Source of the DNA: Enterobacteria phage JenP2
Length of the DNA stretch: 59,802 bases
Reading direction: 5' to 3' (one strand)
Sequence record: NC_028997.1
Shown here: one piece after another, positions 50,910 to 56,813 of the stretch
Layout of the letters: every line of letters begins with the position of its first letter
How positions within the stretch are numbered: the stretch's first letter is position 1
Translations under genes and position numbers: made by a program
The notes under the pieces: model-generated
Told to the model about the DNA's origin: nothing
The model's database searches: none
What the model saw: only the letters and a program-made list of their open reading frames with translations

Positions 50910-51501
50910 TGAGCTCTTGCAATTCTTGCTGTAACTTCACATTACCACTATTATTCGTCTGAAGTCTAACGAGGCGTTCCTTGATATGTGCAATGTGGTT
51001 AGTGCTCATCCGTCGCTTCTGTACATCACACCAGCGAACAACACCATCTTCAATATATGCACGACGTGCTTTACCACGCGGGTATCGCATCGGCCGAACT
51101 TCACACTTATCGCCCACCCACTTGAAGCCCAGGATCATAACGGCGTTACCTTCCGTATCAGGACACACGTCAAAGCAACTGTTGAACCCTTTACTGCGCA
51201 TATACTTGTCGAGCGGAATCACGCAATCCACATCCAACAACCAGTACCCGAAGTAAATGTCGACAGTGAACATCATACCCAACATCGGAGCCGACCAGCA
51301 CATATACATCCGCCCGTCATCTAACTTCTTAACCGCATTCGGCCGCAACACGAGGCCAGCCGCCTTCCACGCTTTGACCACATTACTTAGGCTGTCATTA
51401 TGCTGCTCTAATATGGTCACCGCTTTGGCGTACATCTCTTCGTCGTAACCGAACATTTCTTGTACGTGTGCGTTTGTTATTTCAATTTTACGATTGCGCA
51501 T
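50881..51501 (-). CDS. hypothetical protein (first gene of the long minus-strand early/replication block)
   Basis: 206 aa; GGTGAGG SD; lies immediately downstream of the palindrome-rich non-coding hub. Confidence 0.45.
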   Translation of the reverse strand: MRNRKIEITNAHVQEMFGYDEEMYAKAVTILEQHNDSLSNVVKAWKAAGLVLRPNAVKKLDDGRMYMCWSAPMLGMMFTVDIYFGYWLLDVDCVIPLDKYMRSKGFNSCFDVCPDTEGNAVMILGFKWVGDKCEVRPMRYPRGKARRAYIEDGVVRWCDVQKRRMSTNHIAHIKERLVRLQTNNSGNVKLQQELQELIEYIDQFGA

Positions 51502-51559
51502 AACCTCACCCTTGATAATAATAAATCGACTGATTTTGAAATTCAGTTGCCAAGTTTTA

Positions 51560-51680
51560 ATTTATGCAAAGTTTTTGCTATTTGCAACCGTGATATTTTG
51601 CGGTGTTTGTATGTGCAATGTTTTTGCTTTTGCAAAAAATTACAACAGTCTGAAGGTGAAAATTTGCAAATTTATAAAGA
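51560..51680. promoter_or_regulatory. array of TTTGCAAA-type palindromic motifs (operator/promoter-like)
   Basis: At least five copies of a TTGCAA core within ~120 bp, including the perfect palindromes TTTTGCAAAA (~51628) and AAATTTGCAAATTT (51660-51673); AATTTATAAAGAT repeated twice nearby; a TTGCAA-17 bp-TAAATT arrangement on the minus strand. Confidence 0.4.
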
Positions 51681-52473
51681 TCGGTGAAAAAATGTACAAT
51701 TTATAAAGATTCAGCAATATACGAAAACGGCGAAGCGAAGTGTATGAAAAATAAGGGAAATTTTTGAGGATTGGGAGGTTTATAGTGATTTATATTATTT
51801 ATAAAGGGGTCTCGTGGGGTCGTCAGTAGACAACTCAAAAACAAAAAATCTTTATAAAATTTATATAAATACACACATATACACATTTTTACCTTATTTT
51901 TCATGCACTTACCTCCTTTCATTTCGTATATTAAGCGGCAATATACGAGCAATATAAGAAATATTTGTTGCGCAACAACGAGGCGCTCACAAGCTCGCGC
52001 ACGCGCATAATGCGGGCACGCGGTCTAACACAAAAGAAAATTGAATTGCAAGCGATTTTTGCTGAGGTAACTCTCGAAGCGAAAGCGATTTGCGAGTATG
52101 AATTTTTGTAGCCCGAAAACGATTCTATTTTATGGTATAAATGTCGGATTTTTCGGTGAAAGCGAGCTTTTCGGTGAGGTTGGGTGGCTGGGATCGGTGT
52201 AACTGGTAGCCCATAAAGCGAAAATAGCCGCGAAAACGGGGCGCGCAGCGCGATTAAATGGTTGGATCAGTGTAAGGGTGGCGGTGAGGGGCGAAAATGC
52301 CGCAAAATCGCTTACAGGGATGCAGGGAGTGGATCGCTATAAGGGCGTATAAGGCGATTAAATTGGAGTCTATGGTAAGGTATGGAAGAGGATTTAGGCT
52401 CTTAGAGCGCGAATGCCGGAGCTATGGGTGAGGAATATGTGGTCAGCAGGGTAGCGCGGGAGGTGGTGCGGGT

Positions 52474-52512
52474 ACAAAAACGAAAGCGCCCCGTTGGACT
52501 TCAACAGGGCGC
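52474..52512 (-). terminator. rho-independent terminator (minus strand)
   Basis: GCGCCCCGTTG-gactt-CAACAGGGCGC stem (one mismatch) followed on the minus strand by TTTCGTTTTTGT; lies downstream of the gene ending at 52536. Confidence 0.6.
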
Positions 52513-52535
52513 GGATTGTATAATGCAGTTAGAAG

Positions 52536-52784
52536 TTATTTACTAGTTAATAATACCGCCCAGGTATTATCTGGAAGCGTACCAACTCCAAGTATCTTAA
52601 ACTGAAGTGACTTGTTCTGCATGTTGTAGTTGTCGAGTAACTCCTGGGCAGCGGCAGCGGCGTTCGCTTCACCGTTCAGGTTGTAGTCGTTTGCAGTTAT
52701 TGCACACATACCGAGGCCGACTGCTTTGAAGCGCATACCTTTGGATTGAGTCGGTGCCAGTGCTTTGATATGGATAGCGTTCAT
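52536..52784 (-). CDS. hypothetical small protein, family A paralog 1
   Basis: 82 aa; paralogous to 53315..53560 (shared AAAxEL, K(I/E)(L/V)GxG(T/E)LPD motifs). Confidence 0.45.
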   Translation of the reverse strand: MNAIHIKALAPTQSKGMRFKAVGLGMCAITANDYNLNGEANAAAAAQELLDNYNMQNKSLQFKILGVGTLPDNTWAVLLTSK

Positions 52785-52813
52785 ATTATTTATCTCCGTT
52801 ACAATTTTAGACG

Positions 52814-53071
52814 TTAGCAGTTTTTTAACAGGTTGATGAAGCCCGCCAGCGTGGACGCTGTTGCAACCAGGCGGCCCATAGTATGCAGTTCCGCGTGAAC
52901 TGTACCGTCGTCGAATACAGTTAAATAAACGTTAAGACCATTGCAACGGACGCGATATTTGCGCGCGTTATTACCGAAAGTTTCTAGCTCTGCGGTAATA
53001 GTCGCAAGATTAGCTATACGTTTGCCGATAATACGGCGAGTGATAGTGGACTGGTTTAATACTGTAGACAT
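52814..53071 (-). CDS. hypothetical small protein, family B paralog 1
   Basis: 85 aa; paralogous to 54386..54691 (ITRRIIGKRIANL vs ITKRIIGKRLHQL; DDGTVHAE...GRLV vs EDGTVSSY...GRPV). Confidence 0.45.
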   Translation of the reverse strand: MSTVLNQSTITRRIIGKRIANLATITAELETFGNNARKYRVRCNGLNVYLTVFDDGTVHAELHTMGRLVATASTLAGFINLLKNC

Positions 53072-53139
53072 AATAATTTCCTCAGTTAACTATGCGAAGT
53101 GCATATTATTGCCCACGGTTACTATGGGCAATGTATATG

Positions 53140-53304
53140 TCACTCAGCGGTCACATATTCTAACGCTTCTGATAGTGTAGCGAAGTGACCATCACTCATC
53201 AGATTAATAGCGTACTCAAGTTGATCTCGGGTCAGGTTGCGAAACTTGTTGCGGATGTGATAGCAACGACCGCGATAAATAACCTGGAAATAGTTGCGTT
53301 CCAT
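53140..53304 (-). CDS. hypothetical small protein
   Basis: About 54 aa from the Met of MERNYF; the track N-terminal extension would overlap the upstream gene. Confidence 0.3.
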   Translation of the reverse strand: MERNYFQVIYRGRCYHIRNKFRNLTRDQLEYAINLMSDGHFATLSEALEYVTAE

Positions 53305-53314
53305 AATTATCCCC

Positions 53315-53560
53315 TTATGCAACGATGAACGCGTAACCGCTTTGATCTGGAAGCTCGCCGCCGTCAACAATCTCAAACTCAACGCCCGCTTTATCGTTGA
53401 ACTTTTTGATAAGCTCTTCCGCTGCGGCGCGGTGGTTGCCGTAAACGCCCAGATCGTCACGCCATGTGATAGTCAAGGAGCCGTTCCAGCCTGTTGCTTT
53501 TACGCGCGGGTTACGGGTAGCAGTCGGGTTCATGAATTTTGTGATGATAGCTTGAGCCAT
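53315..53560 (-). CDS. hypothetical small protein, family A paralog 2
   Basis: 81 aa; see 52536..52784. Confidence 0.45.
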   Translation of the reverse strand: MAQAIITKFMNPTATRNPRVKATGWNGSLTITWRDDLGVYGNHRAAAEELIKKFNDKAGVEFEIVDGGELPDQSGYAFIVA

Positions 53561-53565
53561 GATAA

Positions 53566-53751
53566 TTACTCCGGTAAAATTACAGTGACGTTAATATTTG
53601 CAATGCGAGCACACTCGCGGAAACCTTTTACATAAGCATCCATTTCATCATAGGATGCGAAAGTTGCGTCCGGGACTGGTCCGTTGTTAATATTCACGCA
53701 ATATTCGTGATCGTCCAGGTCCACCCAACAATACAGAACTATAGTTTCCAT
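53566..53751 (-). CDS. hypothetical small protein
   Basis: About 62 aa from the Met of METIVLY; GGAGGG SD lies inside the upstream micro-ORF. Confidence 0.4.
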   Translation of the reverse strand: METIVLYCWVDLDDHEYCVNINNGPVPDATFASYDEMDAYVKGFRECARIANINVTVILPE

Positions 53752-53752
53752 A

Positions 53753-53827
53753 TTATTTGCCCTCCGTATAGTACAGACCTGCAACTATTGGAGCTCCGAA
53801 CACTAAGAAAGCTAATAAGTAGAACAT
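53753..53827 (-). CDS. 24-aa hydrophobic micro-protein (not in the ORF track)
   Basis: Hand translation MFYLLAFLVFGAPIVAGLYYTEGK; GGAGG SD 8 nt upstream; stop overlaps the next start (TAATATG). Coordinates derived by arithmetic from track frames. Confidence 0.4.
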   Translation of the reverse strand: MFYLLAFLVFGAPIVAGLYYTEGK

Positions 53828-53829
53828 AA

Positions 53830-54324
53830 TTAGTTGCCTCCTTTATTGTTGAGCCCGTTGAATTTACGCCATGCGTAGAATTCAATCGTTGCATTATTAA
53901 TATTCCAACCATTAGCTTTCGCAAGGTCACGGACGTTACCAATAGTTGGCACACCATCAGGTAACATATTATCCAGGGCATTCCAAACGTCTGCGCATTT
54001 ACCTTTAATCGGGCGACGAACCCCGTTGCGCGTTTCGCTGCGCGTTTTGCTCTTGGCGAGAGCGACCGGAGCTTGTTGTGTGGTCACTTCCACGACAGTC
54101 GCTTTATCAGCTTCGACCAGATCGTTAGCCGCCTTATTAACCGCGCCTTCGCTGAACCAGTAGCGGCCACCGTCTTCCAGCGGCTCCTGGTGAATGAAAC
54201 TGTTAGCGGTCGCAGTGTCCACATCCAGAACCTTTTTCAAGGCACGGCGAGCGTTAGACATGTTGGTGAAAAAGCGAGCATCTTTCGCTACGCGAGTGAT
54301 AGTTGCCATTGTAAATATCTCCAT
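53830..54324 (-). CDS. hypothetical protein
   Basis: 164-aa ORF (the true start may be the Met of MATITRV at about 54309). Confidence 0.45.
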   Translation of the reverse strand: MEIFTMATITRVAKDARFFTNMSNARRALKKVLDVDTATANSFIHQEPLEDGGRYWFSEGAVNKAANDLVEADKATVVEVTTQQAPVALAKSKTRSETRNGVRRPIKGKCADVWNALDNMLPDGVPTIGNVRDLAKANGWNINNATIEFYAWRKFNGLNNKGGN

Positions 54325-54385
54325 GTTGTTCTAGCGGATTGCTAGTGGGAGCCCACTGTGACAATGGGCAACCATTAGCACGCTA

Positions 54386-54691
54386 TTATTGTTGAATAGC
54401 TTTAGCTATCATTGTGATGAAGCAGAACACAGACCAAAGGCTATTCGCTTGGCATACTGGGCGACCATACATTACGCTATAAGAGCTGACAGTGCCGTCC
54501 TCGTTAATGCGAATGTATAACGCGGTGCTGGAATATTTTTCGTTGCCCGGGAGCATTACCAGATACTCGTCGAAATCCCAATCCCCGTCGACCTTTTCCG
54601 CTGTAAGGCCCAGCTGATGTAGGCGCTTGCCGATAATGCGCTTAGTAATCTGAGATTGGGACATGGAACGCGGTAAGTAGATAATGGACAT
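54386..54691 (-). CDS. hypothetical small protein, family B paralog 2
   Basis: About 101 aa from the Met of MSIIYLPRS; see 52814..53071. Confidence 0.45.
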   Translation of the reverse strand: MSIIYLPRSMSQSQITKRIIGKRLHQLGLTAEKVDGDWDFDEYLVMLPGNEKYSSTALYIRINEDGTVSSYSVMYGRPVCQANSLWSVFCFITMIAKAIQQ

Positions 54692-54880
54692 AATGCAATC
54701 TCCCTTCGGGTGAGGCGGGCGCGGAACCCGTGTCCCGCTTAAAAACCCCCTTAACCCTACGCAGTTATAGTATGACAACGGGGTATCAGATGCAACTATT
54801 ATCTGCATTATTTTAGAACTTTTTTAGTTGTGTTTCATAATAATAACATCCGGGACTACACGGTAGATGGTGTGCCGGAA

Positions 54881-54945
54881 ATACCAGGTAGCGCGAGCGT
54901 GTCGAACATACCAGGTAACAGCACACGCCGAACATACCAGGTAGC
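54881..54945. repeat. three tandem 26-27 bp direct repeats (iteron-like)
   Basis: Core ATACCAGGTA(G/A)C at ~54881, ~54908 and ~54934 within a ~490-bp non-coding region between divergent gene blocks. Confidence 0.6.
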
Positions 54946-55296
54946 ACATACATAGACAGCATATAGTGGGCAGGTGGATAGTAACAGATGTAATTATACT
55001 GGACTGTACAGTATAGTCATGTAATAGATAGCATACTAATCAAATAAAAAATAATAACGCGTGTAATAATAAACAACGTTACAGTAGAGCGCGCAACAGT
55101 CACATGACGTAACAATCACCTCACTGACGATCACGGGACGTTATAGTAACGCCGCGGGGCGGCTCTTAGATCTCTGCCAAGGATTCATCGTTTGTAGATT
55201 ATCTCGTCGCTAGACACTTTATATCCTCACCTCACCTGCCCTATATTGTTCGTATAAAGTTAATTCTGTATGTAAATACTCGAGAGGAGATCTGTT

Positions 55297-55584
55297 ATGT
55301 TCGTTCTGGCTTTCAGTAGTGCAATATGGCTAGGTATCAACTGGATCCTTGCAATTATATTAGGTCTTGTGATTTGGTATGTGCCGTTTATGCGTTACGC
55401 TGTTATCATTTCGCTTGCATATTTAGTTGTTAAACATTTCTTCGTATGGTGTGTATGCAACCCACAAGCTGCAAACATCAAACGTAAGAAAGCGAACTTC
55501 TTTACTGTGCTTATTTTAGGTTCACTGATTGTGTACGCATGGTTGCTCGGTGCGCAGAACTTAGGTTGGTTCACGTTGCCTTAA
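55297..55584 (+). CDS. small integral membrane protein
   Basis: 95 aa; three predicted hydrophobic helices; GAGAGGAGA SD; first gene of the plus-strand right-arm block. Confidence 0.5.
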   Translation: MFVLAFSSAIWLGINWILAIILGLVIWYVPFMRYAVIISLAYLVVKHFFVWCVCNPQAANIKRKKANFFTVLILGSLIVYAWLLGAQNLGWFTLP

Positions 55585-55669
55585 TGTGGTCACTAATTGT
55601 TGCGGCCGGCTATGTTAATCAACTTGCGTATCCTGTTATAGTTATTCCGTTAACGTTAAAGGGGGTTAT

Positions 55670-56035
55670 ATGAACGAGAATATAGTTAAAGCCTGGTCTA
55701 TCTTACGACCACAGTTGAAAGACGATCGTGTCGCTTTTGTTTTATGTCCTGCCAACGAATATCGCCGGAAGCTCGAAGAAGTGTTGCGCGAAGATCCTGA
55801 GTTCGTTCGCTGTGTGCAACTGTCGCGCGAGTCATCTGTTGTACAGTTTGATCGATTTCATCTTCGTTTGGTTTCTCATCACAGAGCCTCGTATGAAGAC
55901 ACTGTTATTCGTACGAGTGGGTTCCATTGTGATATTGCAATCCTTGACTGCAAATTGGACATTGGGCAGAAACAAGATTTATATAATCTCGCTCATGAAC
56001 GTCACGGTGAACTGTTAATTGTGGAAGTACAATAA
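55670..56035 (+). CDS. hypothetical protein
   Basis: 121-aa ORF. Confidence 0.45.
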   Translation: MNENIVKAWSILRPQLKDDRVAFVLCPANEYRRKLEEVLREDPEFVRCVQLSRESSVVQFDRFHLRLVSHHRASYEDTVIRTSGFHCDIAILDCKLDIGQKQDLYNLAHERHGELLIVEVQ

Positions 56036-56373
56036 TGGCTAAAGATATCGTTATTCCGAAAATGTATTGCCAGCTCCGTGATACTTTATTACAGAGCGGT
56101 TGGATTATTAGTCACAGCGATGTAAATGACACTTATATTGTTCTTATACCACCTGAAGGAACAATATCTTGTATTCTGCATTATATGCCTGAAGCGAAGA
56201 CGGTTTATCCGAACGGGTCGTTCTTGCTTCGTCTGCGCTCCGATACATGGAAGATCCAGACGGATACCTGTGCAATTGACGAGAATACCAGTAAAGAGTT
56301 TATTCGCAAGCTAACTCAGCTGAATAAAATCTACGAGCATGTTAAATTTGATTTGTTTAAGGAAGTCTTCTAA
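56035..56373 (+). CDS. hypothetical protein
   Basis: 112-aa ORF; overlapping start and stop with neighbours. Confidence 0.45.
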   Translation: MAKDIVIPKMYCQLRDTLLQSGWIISHSDVNDTYIVLIPPEGTISCILHYMPEAKTVYPNGSFLLRLRSDTWKIQTDTCAIDENTSKEFIRKLTQLNKIYEHVKFDLFKEVF

Positions 56374-56813
56374 TGCTTACTGTTAATGACCGCATCACCC
56401 ATAAAACTCAACCGACAATGATGTCTTGCATGGCAGCCTGTCTGGCTATGCTTCTTGACAGGGATGTTGAAGAAGTTGACAACGAATTCAGCTTAGACTA
56501 CGTTCGTGGGTATATTGACGTCGCCAGTTATCTTTATAGACAAGGTATCTTTGCACAGCCACATATCACTGCCGGTATGCACCAAATATATCCAGGGCGC
56601 TTATATCTTGCTACTGTACCTTCTTTGCAGTTACCTGGGCTTTTCCATCAGATCATTATTGACGCTCGTTTTGACGGTGTAACCGTATACGATCCAGCTA
56701 AAGGTCTGGAAGGGAAACAATATTATTCCTATGACCACATTGCAGAAGAAAATGAGCTGGCGTATCCTTTGCGGTCTTTCTTGATTGATTACGAAATTAT
56801 ATTACCGGAGTGA
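56373..56813 (+). CDS. putative papain-like cysteine peptidase (C39-like)
   Basis: 146 aa; Gln about 6 residues before a Cys in QPTMMSCMAACLAML, and a downstream HQIIIDARFDG His/Asp pair, consistent with a papain-like catalytic arrangement (motif-level inference). Confidence 0.4.
   Translation: MLTVNDRITHKTQPTMMSCMAACLAMLLDRDVEEVDNEFSLDYVRGYIDVASYLYRQGIFAQPHITAGMHQIYPGRLYLATVPSLQLPGLFHQIIIDARFDGVTVYDPAKGLEGKQYYSYDHIAEENELAYPLRSFLIDYEIILPE

Follow-up and report, generated by a model that had tools for sequence, protein, structure and literature searches.

Two duplicated families of small proteins in a putative immediate-early operon within the terminal repeat of Nonagvirus phages

What is the role of two unrelated families of small proteins, each present twice, in a single minus-strand unit of Enterobacteria phage JenP2? 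The unit occupies positions 52,536 to 54,691 of sequence record NC_028997.1, a stretch of 59,802 nucleotides that was analysed as a whole and is referred to as the window. A first-pass annotation made from the sequence letters had described an array of the families A and B, interleaved with other small open reading frames (ORFs), closed by an intrinsic terminator and formed by the tandem diversification typical of host-takeover or anti-defence loci. The duplication itself was borne out by alignment. The family A proteins A1 and A2 matched each other with 37% identity over 73 aa (BLASTP, E = 8e-11), and the family B proteins B1 and B2 with 35% identity over 77 aa (E = 8e-10), the latter alignment including the segments ITRRIIGKRI/ITKRIIGKRL, DDGTV/EDGTV and GRLV/GRPV. 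In a profile check, both members of each pair fell into the same PHROG (Table 1). Hidden Markov models (HMMs) of the two families, run against all window ORFs of at least 30 aa, returned exactly two copies per family and none elsewhere.

The answer begins with the location of the unit. The region matches 16 Nonagvirus records at 90-96% identity, and by sequence similarity the window is a Nonagvirus genome of the phage 9g type (Queuovirinae). The record of the Nonagvirus HdK1 ends as it begins, the first 3,367 bp being identical (100%) to the last 3,367 bp. This direct terminal repeat (DTR) aligns to window positions 51801-55165/55186 at 95.9% identity. Compared with other Nonagvirus records, those of HdK1 and HdSG1 have about 4 kb more sequence, and both begin about 700 bp before the terminator of the unit. 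For phage 9g, a physical DNA end was mapped at position 28,243 from read starts and read pile-up, the early genes were placed beside this end, and a terminal repeat of unknown size was inferred (PMC4276943). The 9g end converts to window position 55165 through an alignment that is gap-free over the interval and coincides to the base with the boundary of the HdK1 repeat; the first gene of the operon lies 473 bp from this end. Together, the mapping of the HdK1 repeat and the 9g end indicate that the minus-strand unit is the complete coding content of a Nonagvirus DTR of about 3.4 kb, which is assigned to JenP2 by homology.

A perfect DTR of 3,695 bp was also found in Seuratvirus ECP2304 (OR880647.1; L023/L024). 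It contains a family A gene, a homologue of the 159-aa operon protein p159 and a few more small ORFs, suggesting that a gene-bearing terminal repeat is common to both E. coli genera of the subfamily. No description of such a repeat in the two genera was found in the searchable literature. One 74-aa ORF of the ECP2304 repeat is labelled 'internal head protein', a doubtful label for an ORF in an early operon.

Read from its outer edge inward, the repeat comprises the DNA end, 145 bp, the promoter P1, a leader of about 290 nt, eight ORFs, the terminator and 0.67 kb that are gene-free. The ORFs follow each other from 54691 to 52536 in the order B2, p159, a 24-aa micro-ORF, an acidic 61-aa protein, A2, a 54-aa protein, B1 and A1, and a Shine-Dalgarno sequence precedes every one of them in this operon of 2.2 kb. 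The ORFs interleaved with the two families are those of 54, 61 and 159/164 aa and the micro-ORF; the last had been overlooked, which makes eight genes instead of seven. P1 was the best promoter-like match of the region in a consensus scan (10 of 12 positions) and coincides with a promoter annotated in 9g by BPROM. Its leader is 96% identical across eight genomes, in all of which the cores of three 19-nt direct repeats are invariant. These repeats are a candidate operator or regulatory site. The proposed intrinsic terminator was found as well: a stem of 11 bp with eight G-C pairs (52486-52512) is followed by TTTCGTTTTT, the RNA fold scored better than all 200 shuffles (z = -4.2), and the records of HdK1 and SP8 annotate the element independently. 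About 1 kb of downstream sequence separates it from the next gene on the minus strand. Judged by consensus matches for both signals, this discrete unit of small proteins would thus possess its own sigma-70-like promoter of the host type and its own terminator.

A structured 5' leader was rejected (RNA fold z = -0.8), and an Rfam scan of 51400-55700 yielded no match. The genes bas20_0078 of FritzHoffmann and bas19_0078/0079 of ChristophMerian, annotated upstream of B2, are located within the non-coding leader (96% conserved) and probably represent over-annotation.

Table 1 Features of the putative terminal-repeat operon of phage JenP2 (window coordinates)
Feature	Position	Strand	Description
DTR-equivalent stretch	51801..55165	.	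homology to HdK1 repeat and 9g mapped end; encloses all parts listed below
Promoter P1	54993..55020	-	sigma-70-like ATGACT-16-TATAAT, AT-rich tract upstream
Untranslated leader	54692..54985	-	about 290 nt between P1 and first gene; mean column identity 96%
Three 19-nt direct repeats	54874..54945	-	GCTACCTGGTATKTYCGGC on mRNA strand, spacing 26-27 nt, in 5' leader
B2 (101 aa)	54386..54691	-	second copy of family B, opens the operon; phrog_13865, E = 6e-61
Intergenic hairpin element copy 2	54325..54385	-	hairpin 54351-54371; RNA fold -28.7 kcal/mol, z = -6.1
p159	53830..54309	-	159 aa (164 aa from 54324); phrog_17772, E = 5e-108
Micro-ORF (24 aa)	53753..53827	-	hydrophobic, MFYLLAFLVFGAPIVAGLYYTEGK; between p159 and 61-aa ORF; GGAGG Shine-Dalgarno
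Acidic 61-aa protein	53566..53751	-	pI 4.1; phrog_5461; 90-97% conserved
A2 (81 aa)	53315..53560	-	family A copy 2, canonical member of widespread phage family; phrog_3199, E = 4e-30
54-aa protein	53140..53304	-	ATG start at 53304; phrog_18706; 91-96% conserved
Intergenic hairpin element copy 1	53072..53142	-	hairpin 53109-53131; z = -2.3
B1 (85 aa)	52814..53071	-	family B copy 1, ancestral-type B; phrog_13865, E = 8e-37
A1 (82 aa)	52536..52784	-	family A copy 1, divergent subfamily; phrog_3199, E = 1e-25
Intrinsic terminator	52476..52512	-	ends operon; preceded by 15-mer CTAACTGCATTATAC at 52518-52532
Inner non-coding repeat part	51801..52475	-	without conserved ORF; 88-91% conserved across genomes

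On balance, we favour the reading that the DTR operon is an immediate-early host-conditioning module of stoichiometric binding proteins, among which A and B are exchangeable. Since the repeat is located at both ends of the virion DNA, the operon would enter within the first 3.4 kb whichever end leads, and two copies would be present before replication. As it would be readable by the unmodified host RNA polymerase, it should represent an immediate-early ('pre-early') module. Its small products are devoid of catalytic motifs, and their predicted folds look like binding modules. Most likely they would bind macromolecules or ligands of host or phage stoichiometrically and condition the cell in the first minutes of infection, which could mean that a defence is neutralised or a host function is shut off. 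An immediate-early host-conditioning or anti-defence role is plausible. The host-takeover type of locus proposed in the first-pass annotation is partly supported by the early-type position and the variability between strains, but not in its wording of a tandem diversification.

Ten Nonagvirus genomes were compared for this variability. Among them, identity is 90-97% for the 54-aa, 61-aa and p159 proteins, and together with the micro-ORF these would form a conserved core. The A1 alleles show identities of 60%, 65%, 84% or 93-99%, those of A2 66-69% or 85-96%, and in ChristophMerian both A2 and the 54-aa ORF are deleted. B1 is missing from 9g, SP8, SE1 and JenP1, precisely the four in which A1 is present as the divergent allele. 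FritzHoffmann carries an unrelated acidic 57-aa ORF in place of B2, and BRET, PD328 and SP8 have an extra ORF of 88 aa. The junctions of these cassettes are clean and coincide with an intergenic element of about 55-70 nt that contains a hairpin, TGACATATAC-TTGCCCA-N9-TGGGCAA-...AATATGCA.... The motif TTGCCCA-N9-TGGGC occurs at two sites of the genome (54351-54371 and 53111-53131) versus 0.02 expected, and the elements precede p159 and whichever gene follows the 54-aa ORF, B1 in JenP2 and A1 in genomes without B1. The strain-specific A and B genes would thus be swapped as cassettes at the hairpin element. They are the most variable genes of the unit, and the pattern is the one that would be expected of accessory genes at the host interface.

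A local and recent origin of the copies, as implied by a tandem diversification, found no support in the phylogeny. In a neighbour-joining tree of family A with 200 bootstraps, A1 belonged to a clade with 100% support which takes in the A genes of two metagenomic contigs (L019, L020) and has lost H43 and W25, which are conserved elsewhere in the family. The A2 clade (84% support) grouped with canonical family members that unrelated phages encode. With the phage protein P0068, A2 shares 51% identity and with a protein of Pseudomonas phage KoPa-4 49%, versus 30% with A1, and A1 and A2 were joined as one group with a bootstrap of only 41%. Similarly, B1 resembles the B genes of contigs L019-L022, which represent four other lineages, more closely (36-66% identity) than it resembles B2 (about 35%). 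The tree and the identity values suggest that the copies of A and B are ancient paralogues or separate acquisitions, and not a local tandem array.

The same distant contigs preserve the end of the operon. In all four of those with a B gene, the B gene is followed, with a 4-nt overlap or a 1-nt gap, by an A1-type gene and then by the terminator; the A proteins of these pairs are 57-59% identical, and downstream of the A1-like gene stand a near-identical copy of CTAACTGCATTATAC, a hairpin and a T-run. In L020 and L021 a p159 homologue (58-61% identical) is located upstream of the B-A pair, which points to p159 ... B, A, terminator as the ancestral order, to which B2 and A2 would have been added later in Nonagvirus.

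Family A was detected in 203 phage records by tblastn and in 401 clusters by a profile search, and in none of 72,556 plasmids. Its carriers include Chi-like phages, Seuratvirus, T7-like Klebsiella phages, phiKT, PTXU04, phages of Vequintavirus size and several Pseudomonas myoviruses. In a T7-like Klebsiella phage the gene is located upstream of a long gene that looks like one for RNA polymerase; in Seuratvirus slur01 it comes first after the divergent intergenic region, and in Pseudomonas phage KIL1 it lies among promoter-dense small ORFs. Structure prediction, which the first-pass annotation had suggested as a check, yielded models for both families but no convincing match to a known structure. 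The AlphaFold2 model of A2 reached a pLDDT of 93 from an alignment of 38 sequences and has the topology beta1-beta2-beta3-alpha-beta4-beta5, which would correspond to a minimal beta3-alpha-beta2 fold of the RNase-H-like or HicB-N-like type. Near-invariant positions of the family are I5, T7, P12, T13, R19, H43 and A46, and N42, G68 and D72 are also highly conserved. They map to the beta1-beta2 loop, the N-terminus of the helix and the beta4-beta5 turn, where the conserved polar cluster of T13, R19, N42/H43 and D72 may constitute a binding site.

In gp65 of Salmonella phage Chi (L004 2498-3037) and the related proteins P0082, P0088, P0092, P0095 and P0120, all of 177-179 aa, two family A domains are arranged in tandem (E about 1e-17 and 3e-10). 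The length of phrog_3199, 181 positions, reflects these two-domain proteins, whereas A1 and A2 consist of a single domain. In the fused proteins domain 1 is devoid of the PTNTRG loop and domain 2 of the histidine, and these complementary losses suggest an asymmetric pseudo-dimer. On the basis of this fusion and of gene order, family A probably works as a two-domain unit, encoded by two genes in JenP2 and by a fused tandem protein in Chi-like phages, and B1 and A1 probably act together as a translationally coupled pair. A more specific proposal is possible, though tentative: family A, with B as its partner in Queuovirinae, may be a new and widespread immediate-early effector, a homo- or heterodimeric two-domain module whose PTNTRGSR ... 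NH ... LPD cluster in a loop and at the helix cap would bind a host defence component or a signalling nucleotide. Its place in the terminal repeat would let it arrive with the earliest DNA of the infection, and the strain alleles of A and B would set the range of defence-carrying hosts of each Nonagvirus.

Family B is genuinely narrow, as only six small clusters were found among 1.84 billion cluster representatives. It is present in 15 Nonagvirus records, and B2 was found in Nonagvirus only. The AlphaFold2 model of the family (pLDDT 78.6) predicts a helix, five strands and a second helix, an alpha-beta5-alpha sandwich. This fold class is common among small inhibitors, which for the modelled B proteins would be a resemblance and not a membership. 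A Pfam match of B1 to Cro, in which VYLTVFDDGTVHAE resembles IFLTINADGSVYAEE of lambda Cro, was set aside as a beta-hairpin motif, its E-value being 0.066 and the remainder of the protein unmatched.

Database searches assigned no function to the operon. None of seven operon proteins had a significant match in Pfam, NCBIfam or PADLOC. The PHROG matches of the operon proteins are all listed under 'unknown function', including the full-length matches to phrog_3199 and phrog_13865, and no publication was found that names either of these two. A literature search for transcriptome, early-gene or anti-defence studies surfaced none that mention Nonagvirus. Sequence and profile searches of the PDB with A, B, p159, the 61-aa and the 54-aa protein returned artefacts only. 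These were summed weak repeats in protein A and in designed beta-trefoils, and the matches of family B are explained by a short beta-hairpin motif, 'YxRINxDGTV'. Among known anti-defence proteins (anti-CRISPR proteins, DNA mimics of the Ocr/ArdA type, nucleotide sponges), the PDB profiles gave AcrIIA4 at E = 0.077 besides repeat artefacts, no dedicated HMM library of anti-defence proteins being part of the search, and BFVD contained no match at E <= 1e-3.

The conserved core shares this lack of annotation. For p159, which is 92-96% identical within Nonagvirus, the start at 54309 is most likely, since GGAG is located 9 nt upstream of the ATG and the same start is used in all related records. 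The protein was found by tblastn in 115 phage records, among them Seuratvirus, Vid5, Pseudomonas phage iggy and Vibrio siphoviruses, and carries a C-terminal motif, NGxRxPxKGK...FYAWRKF, that is common to Queuovirinae and relatives; it has no match in Pfam or the PDB. The micro-ORF encodes an identical peptide in nine of the ten genomes, with one V-to-I exchange in the tenth, while its DNA is 91-96% identical. Constancy of the peptide over varying DNA suggests that it is probably a real gene for a single-helix membrane peptide, and it is annotated in Bas19 and Bas20. The note 'similar to bacterial oxidoreductases' on the 54-aa ORF of 9g (9g_00035, KJ419279) was unsupported by Pfam.

Several points weigh against an immediate-early host-conditioning module. 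The DTR is known from relatives and is not visible in the JenP2 assembly, in which it would be collapsed. The early status is argued from position and consensus promoters, and any interaction of A with B, or of A with A, from the order and fusion of the genes. The family B model, of moderate reliability, was built from an alignment of four sequences, and allelic mosaicism can also arise by neutral recombination.

Alternatively, the small proteins could be transcription regulators of the phage itself. In that case they would control an early-to-late switch in the divergent promoter region, and the 19-nt repeats would be their operators. The authors of the 9g study proposed gp3, the A2 orthologue, as a 'TetR-like' regulator and likened the promoter layout to that of temperate phages (PMC4276943). 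Conservation is higher in the leader, where the three direct repeats lie (96%), than in the genes, and B1 (pI 9.9) and p159 (pI 9.5) are basic. Yet no helix-turn-helix family, including the Aca-type autoregulators, and no TetR signal was found for any of the seven proteins in Pfam, even at E <= 1. The label 'TetR family transcription regulator' on 9g_00036 (KJ419279) is without a Pfam TetR match, and the A2 model consists of five strands and one helix in the order beta3-alpha-beta2, whereas the TetR fold is all-helical. If the proteins governed an essential switch, one would expect neither losses such as those of A2 in ChristophMerian, B2 in FritzHoffmann and B1 in four genomes, nor exchange for alleles of only 60-69% identity. 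Family A also occurs in phages with other regulatory layouts, such as T7-like and Chi-like phages. We therefore regard a regulatory role as unlikely, even though it is the likeliest of the alternatives.

A role in the biology of the DNA ends appears less likely again. In this case the operon would act like A1/A2 of phage T5, in completing DNA entry, in protection against RecBCD, or in recombination between the repeats that circularises or concatemerises the genome. The left terminal repeat of T5 carries pre-early genes followed by a large untranslated region, with an injection-stop region that contains ordered DnaA boxes. The location inside a terminal repeat with a long, motif-rich, non-coding inner segment is parallel to this arrangement, and p159 is basic, common to many siphoviruses of about 58-60 kb and encoded near the record end in several of them. 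The T5-type stop signal is absent, however: DnaA boxes (TTWTNCACA) number zero in 51801-55165 and two in the genome versus 7.8 +/- 2.6 expected, with at least two in all 100 shuffles, and since the array is lacking a two-step DNA injection is not proposed. Pfam returned no match to a nuclease, a nucleotidase or an A1/A2-like protein, and homologues of A1, A2 and dmp (5'-deoxyribonucleotidase) were not recognised in the Pfam, NCBIfam and PHROG scans, which did not include a direct sequence comparison with T5 A1/A2. Family A is also found in phages with short terminal repeats or none that bear genes. A function at the DNA ends could fit p159 but leaves the variable A and B unexplained.

It is improbable that B1-A1 is a selfish cassette, toxin-antitoxin-like or for superinfection exclusion, that is kept for its own benefit or for the competitive benefit of the phage. 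The B1-A1-type genes overlap, are tightly coupled and are maintained as a unit across lineages, and the order of a larger basic protein first and a smaller one second resembles that of hicA-hicB. On the other hand, the resemblance of the folds is marginal, PADLOC and Pfam gave no toxin-antitoxin match, family A is absent from the plasmids searched, in which toxin-antitoxin modules thrive, and A1 persists without B1 in four genomes. Chance similarity, or ORFs that are not genes, has a negligible probability: only the absence of functional annotation speaks for it, and it is refuted by the pairwise E-values of about 1e-10, a shared PHROG for each pair, hundreds of homologues, a Shine-Dalgarno sequence at every ORF and the confident family A model.

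Some further observations concern the terminator, the inner part of the repeat and its borders. The reverse complement of CTAACTGCATTATAC contains TATAAT and forms, with TGGACT in the terminator loop, a promoter-like site (10 of 12 positions) directed antisense into the operon. A related 12-mer, ATAATGCAGWTA, lies inverted at the operon head (54800-54811); as a genome-wide phage promoter motif it was rejected as not general, with four matches versus 0.9 expected. Over 52000-52750 the GC skew is +0.28 to +0.35, and the minus-strand RNA would contain about 34% C and 16% G. Such a C-rich, G-poor composition is typical of a Rho-utilisation site and suggests a back-up Rho terminator. In the gene-free inner repeat GCGAAA(A) and GCGATT occur three to four times versus 0.1-0.3 expected and are 10-30 times over-represented. 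This part of the repeat is possibly a Rho-dependent back-up terminator or a cis region for packaging or replication. The inner repeat boundary at 51801 lies in an AT-rich zone (51500-52000, GC 0.32) with a 29-nt tandem repeat (51655-51710) and several short inverted repeats. This zone may serve as promoter region for the early operon that follows, as the region cut by the terminase, or in both roles. Genes for HNH homing endonucleases are located just beyond the outer repeat boundary in HdK1 (L002 3536-4015) and, in JenP1, directly at the A1 stop in place of the terminator region (L014 2102-2575). Beside the repeat, an acidic 146-aa protein is encoded in the divergent plus-strand operon (56373-56813, plus strand). 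Its identity is 73-82% in eight of ten genomes and 98% in HdK1, with 88-100% for its neighbours, and it is a further candidate accessory gene.

Queuovirinae have been studied mainly for the deazaguanine modification of their DNA, and the present analysis lists candidates for their first-expressed genes. A compact operon of eight genes in 2.2 kb at both genome ends, in two genera, amounts to a short candidate list for host takeover or anti-defence. Natural knock-outs are available for B1 (9g, SP8, SE1, JenP1) and A2 (ChristophMerian), B2 is replaced in FritzHoffmann, and two of these phages can be obtained from the public BASEL collection. Poor plating of Nonagvirus on E. coli B REL606 has been reported (PMC8594841). 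Family A, the fold of which is predicted with confidence, is unannotated and occurs in about 200 sequenced phages from at least six unrelated groups, so that one functional result would annotate many genomes. In addition, two misleading database notes on 9g, 'TetR family regulator' and 'similar to oxidoreductases', are corrected.

How does an immediate-early module of this type compare with known systems? For family A, the closest solved folds are the N-terminal domain of HicB and the minimal RNase-H-like fold, with which it shares a beta-beta-beta-alpha-beta core and the small size. In contrast to them, the 81-aa protein has no C-terminal DNA-binding domain, no catalytic acidic residues and no detectable sequence relationship, and its upstream partner B gave no HicA-like match. 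The cassette borders recall the promoter-early stem-loop (PeSL) cassettes by which T4-type phages shuffle early genes. By analogy, a repeated, hairpin-bearing intergenic element borders small early-gene cassettes in Nonagvirus, and clean gain, loss and replacement are seen there; unlike in the T4-type phages, only two copies are present, and their promoter half would be a weak one at most (TTGCCC-17-TAATAT, 8 of 12 positions).

The operon as a whole is most similar in layout to long terminal repeats that carry early genes. With the T5 repeat it shares a self-contained set of mostly small genes of unknown function inside a long DTR, a promoter of the host sigma-70 type and an untranslated segment behind the genes, although its repeat measures 3.4 kb versus about 10 kb in T5 and the phages are unrelated (Queuovirinae and Demerecviridae). 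Long repeats packed with small early genes under host-type promoters are also known from the terminal redundancy of Bacillus phage SPO1, a host-takeover module, and from the 'tre' genes of the staphylococcal Kayvirus; redirection of the host is thought, and in part shown, to be the task of these genes. Hosts, sizes and gene families differ from those of Nonagvirus, without homology, and in Nonagvirus the unit consists of one operon with eight genes. By its arrangement, it would join the T5, SPO1 and Kayvirus examples as a further early operon borne on a terminal repeat.

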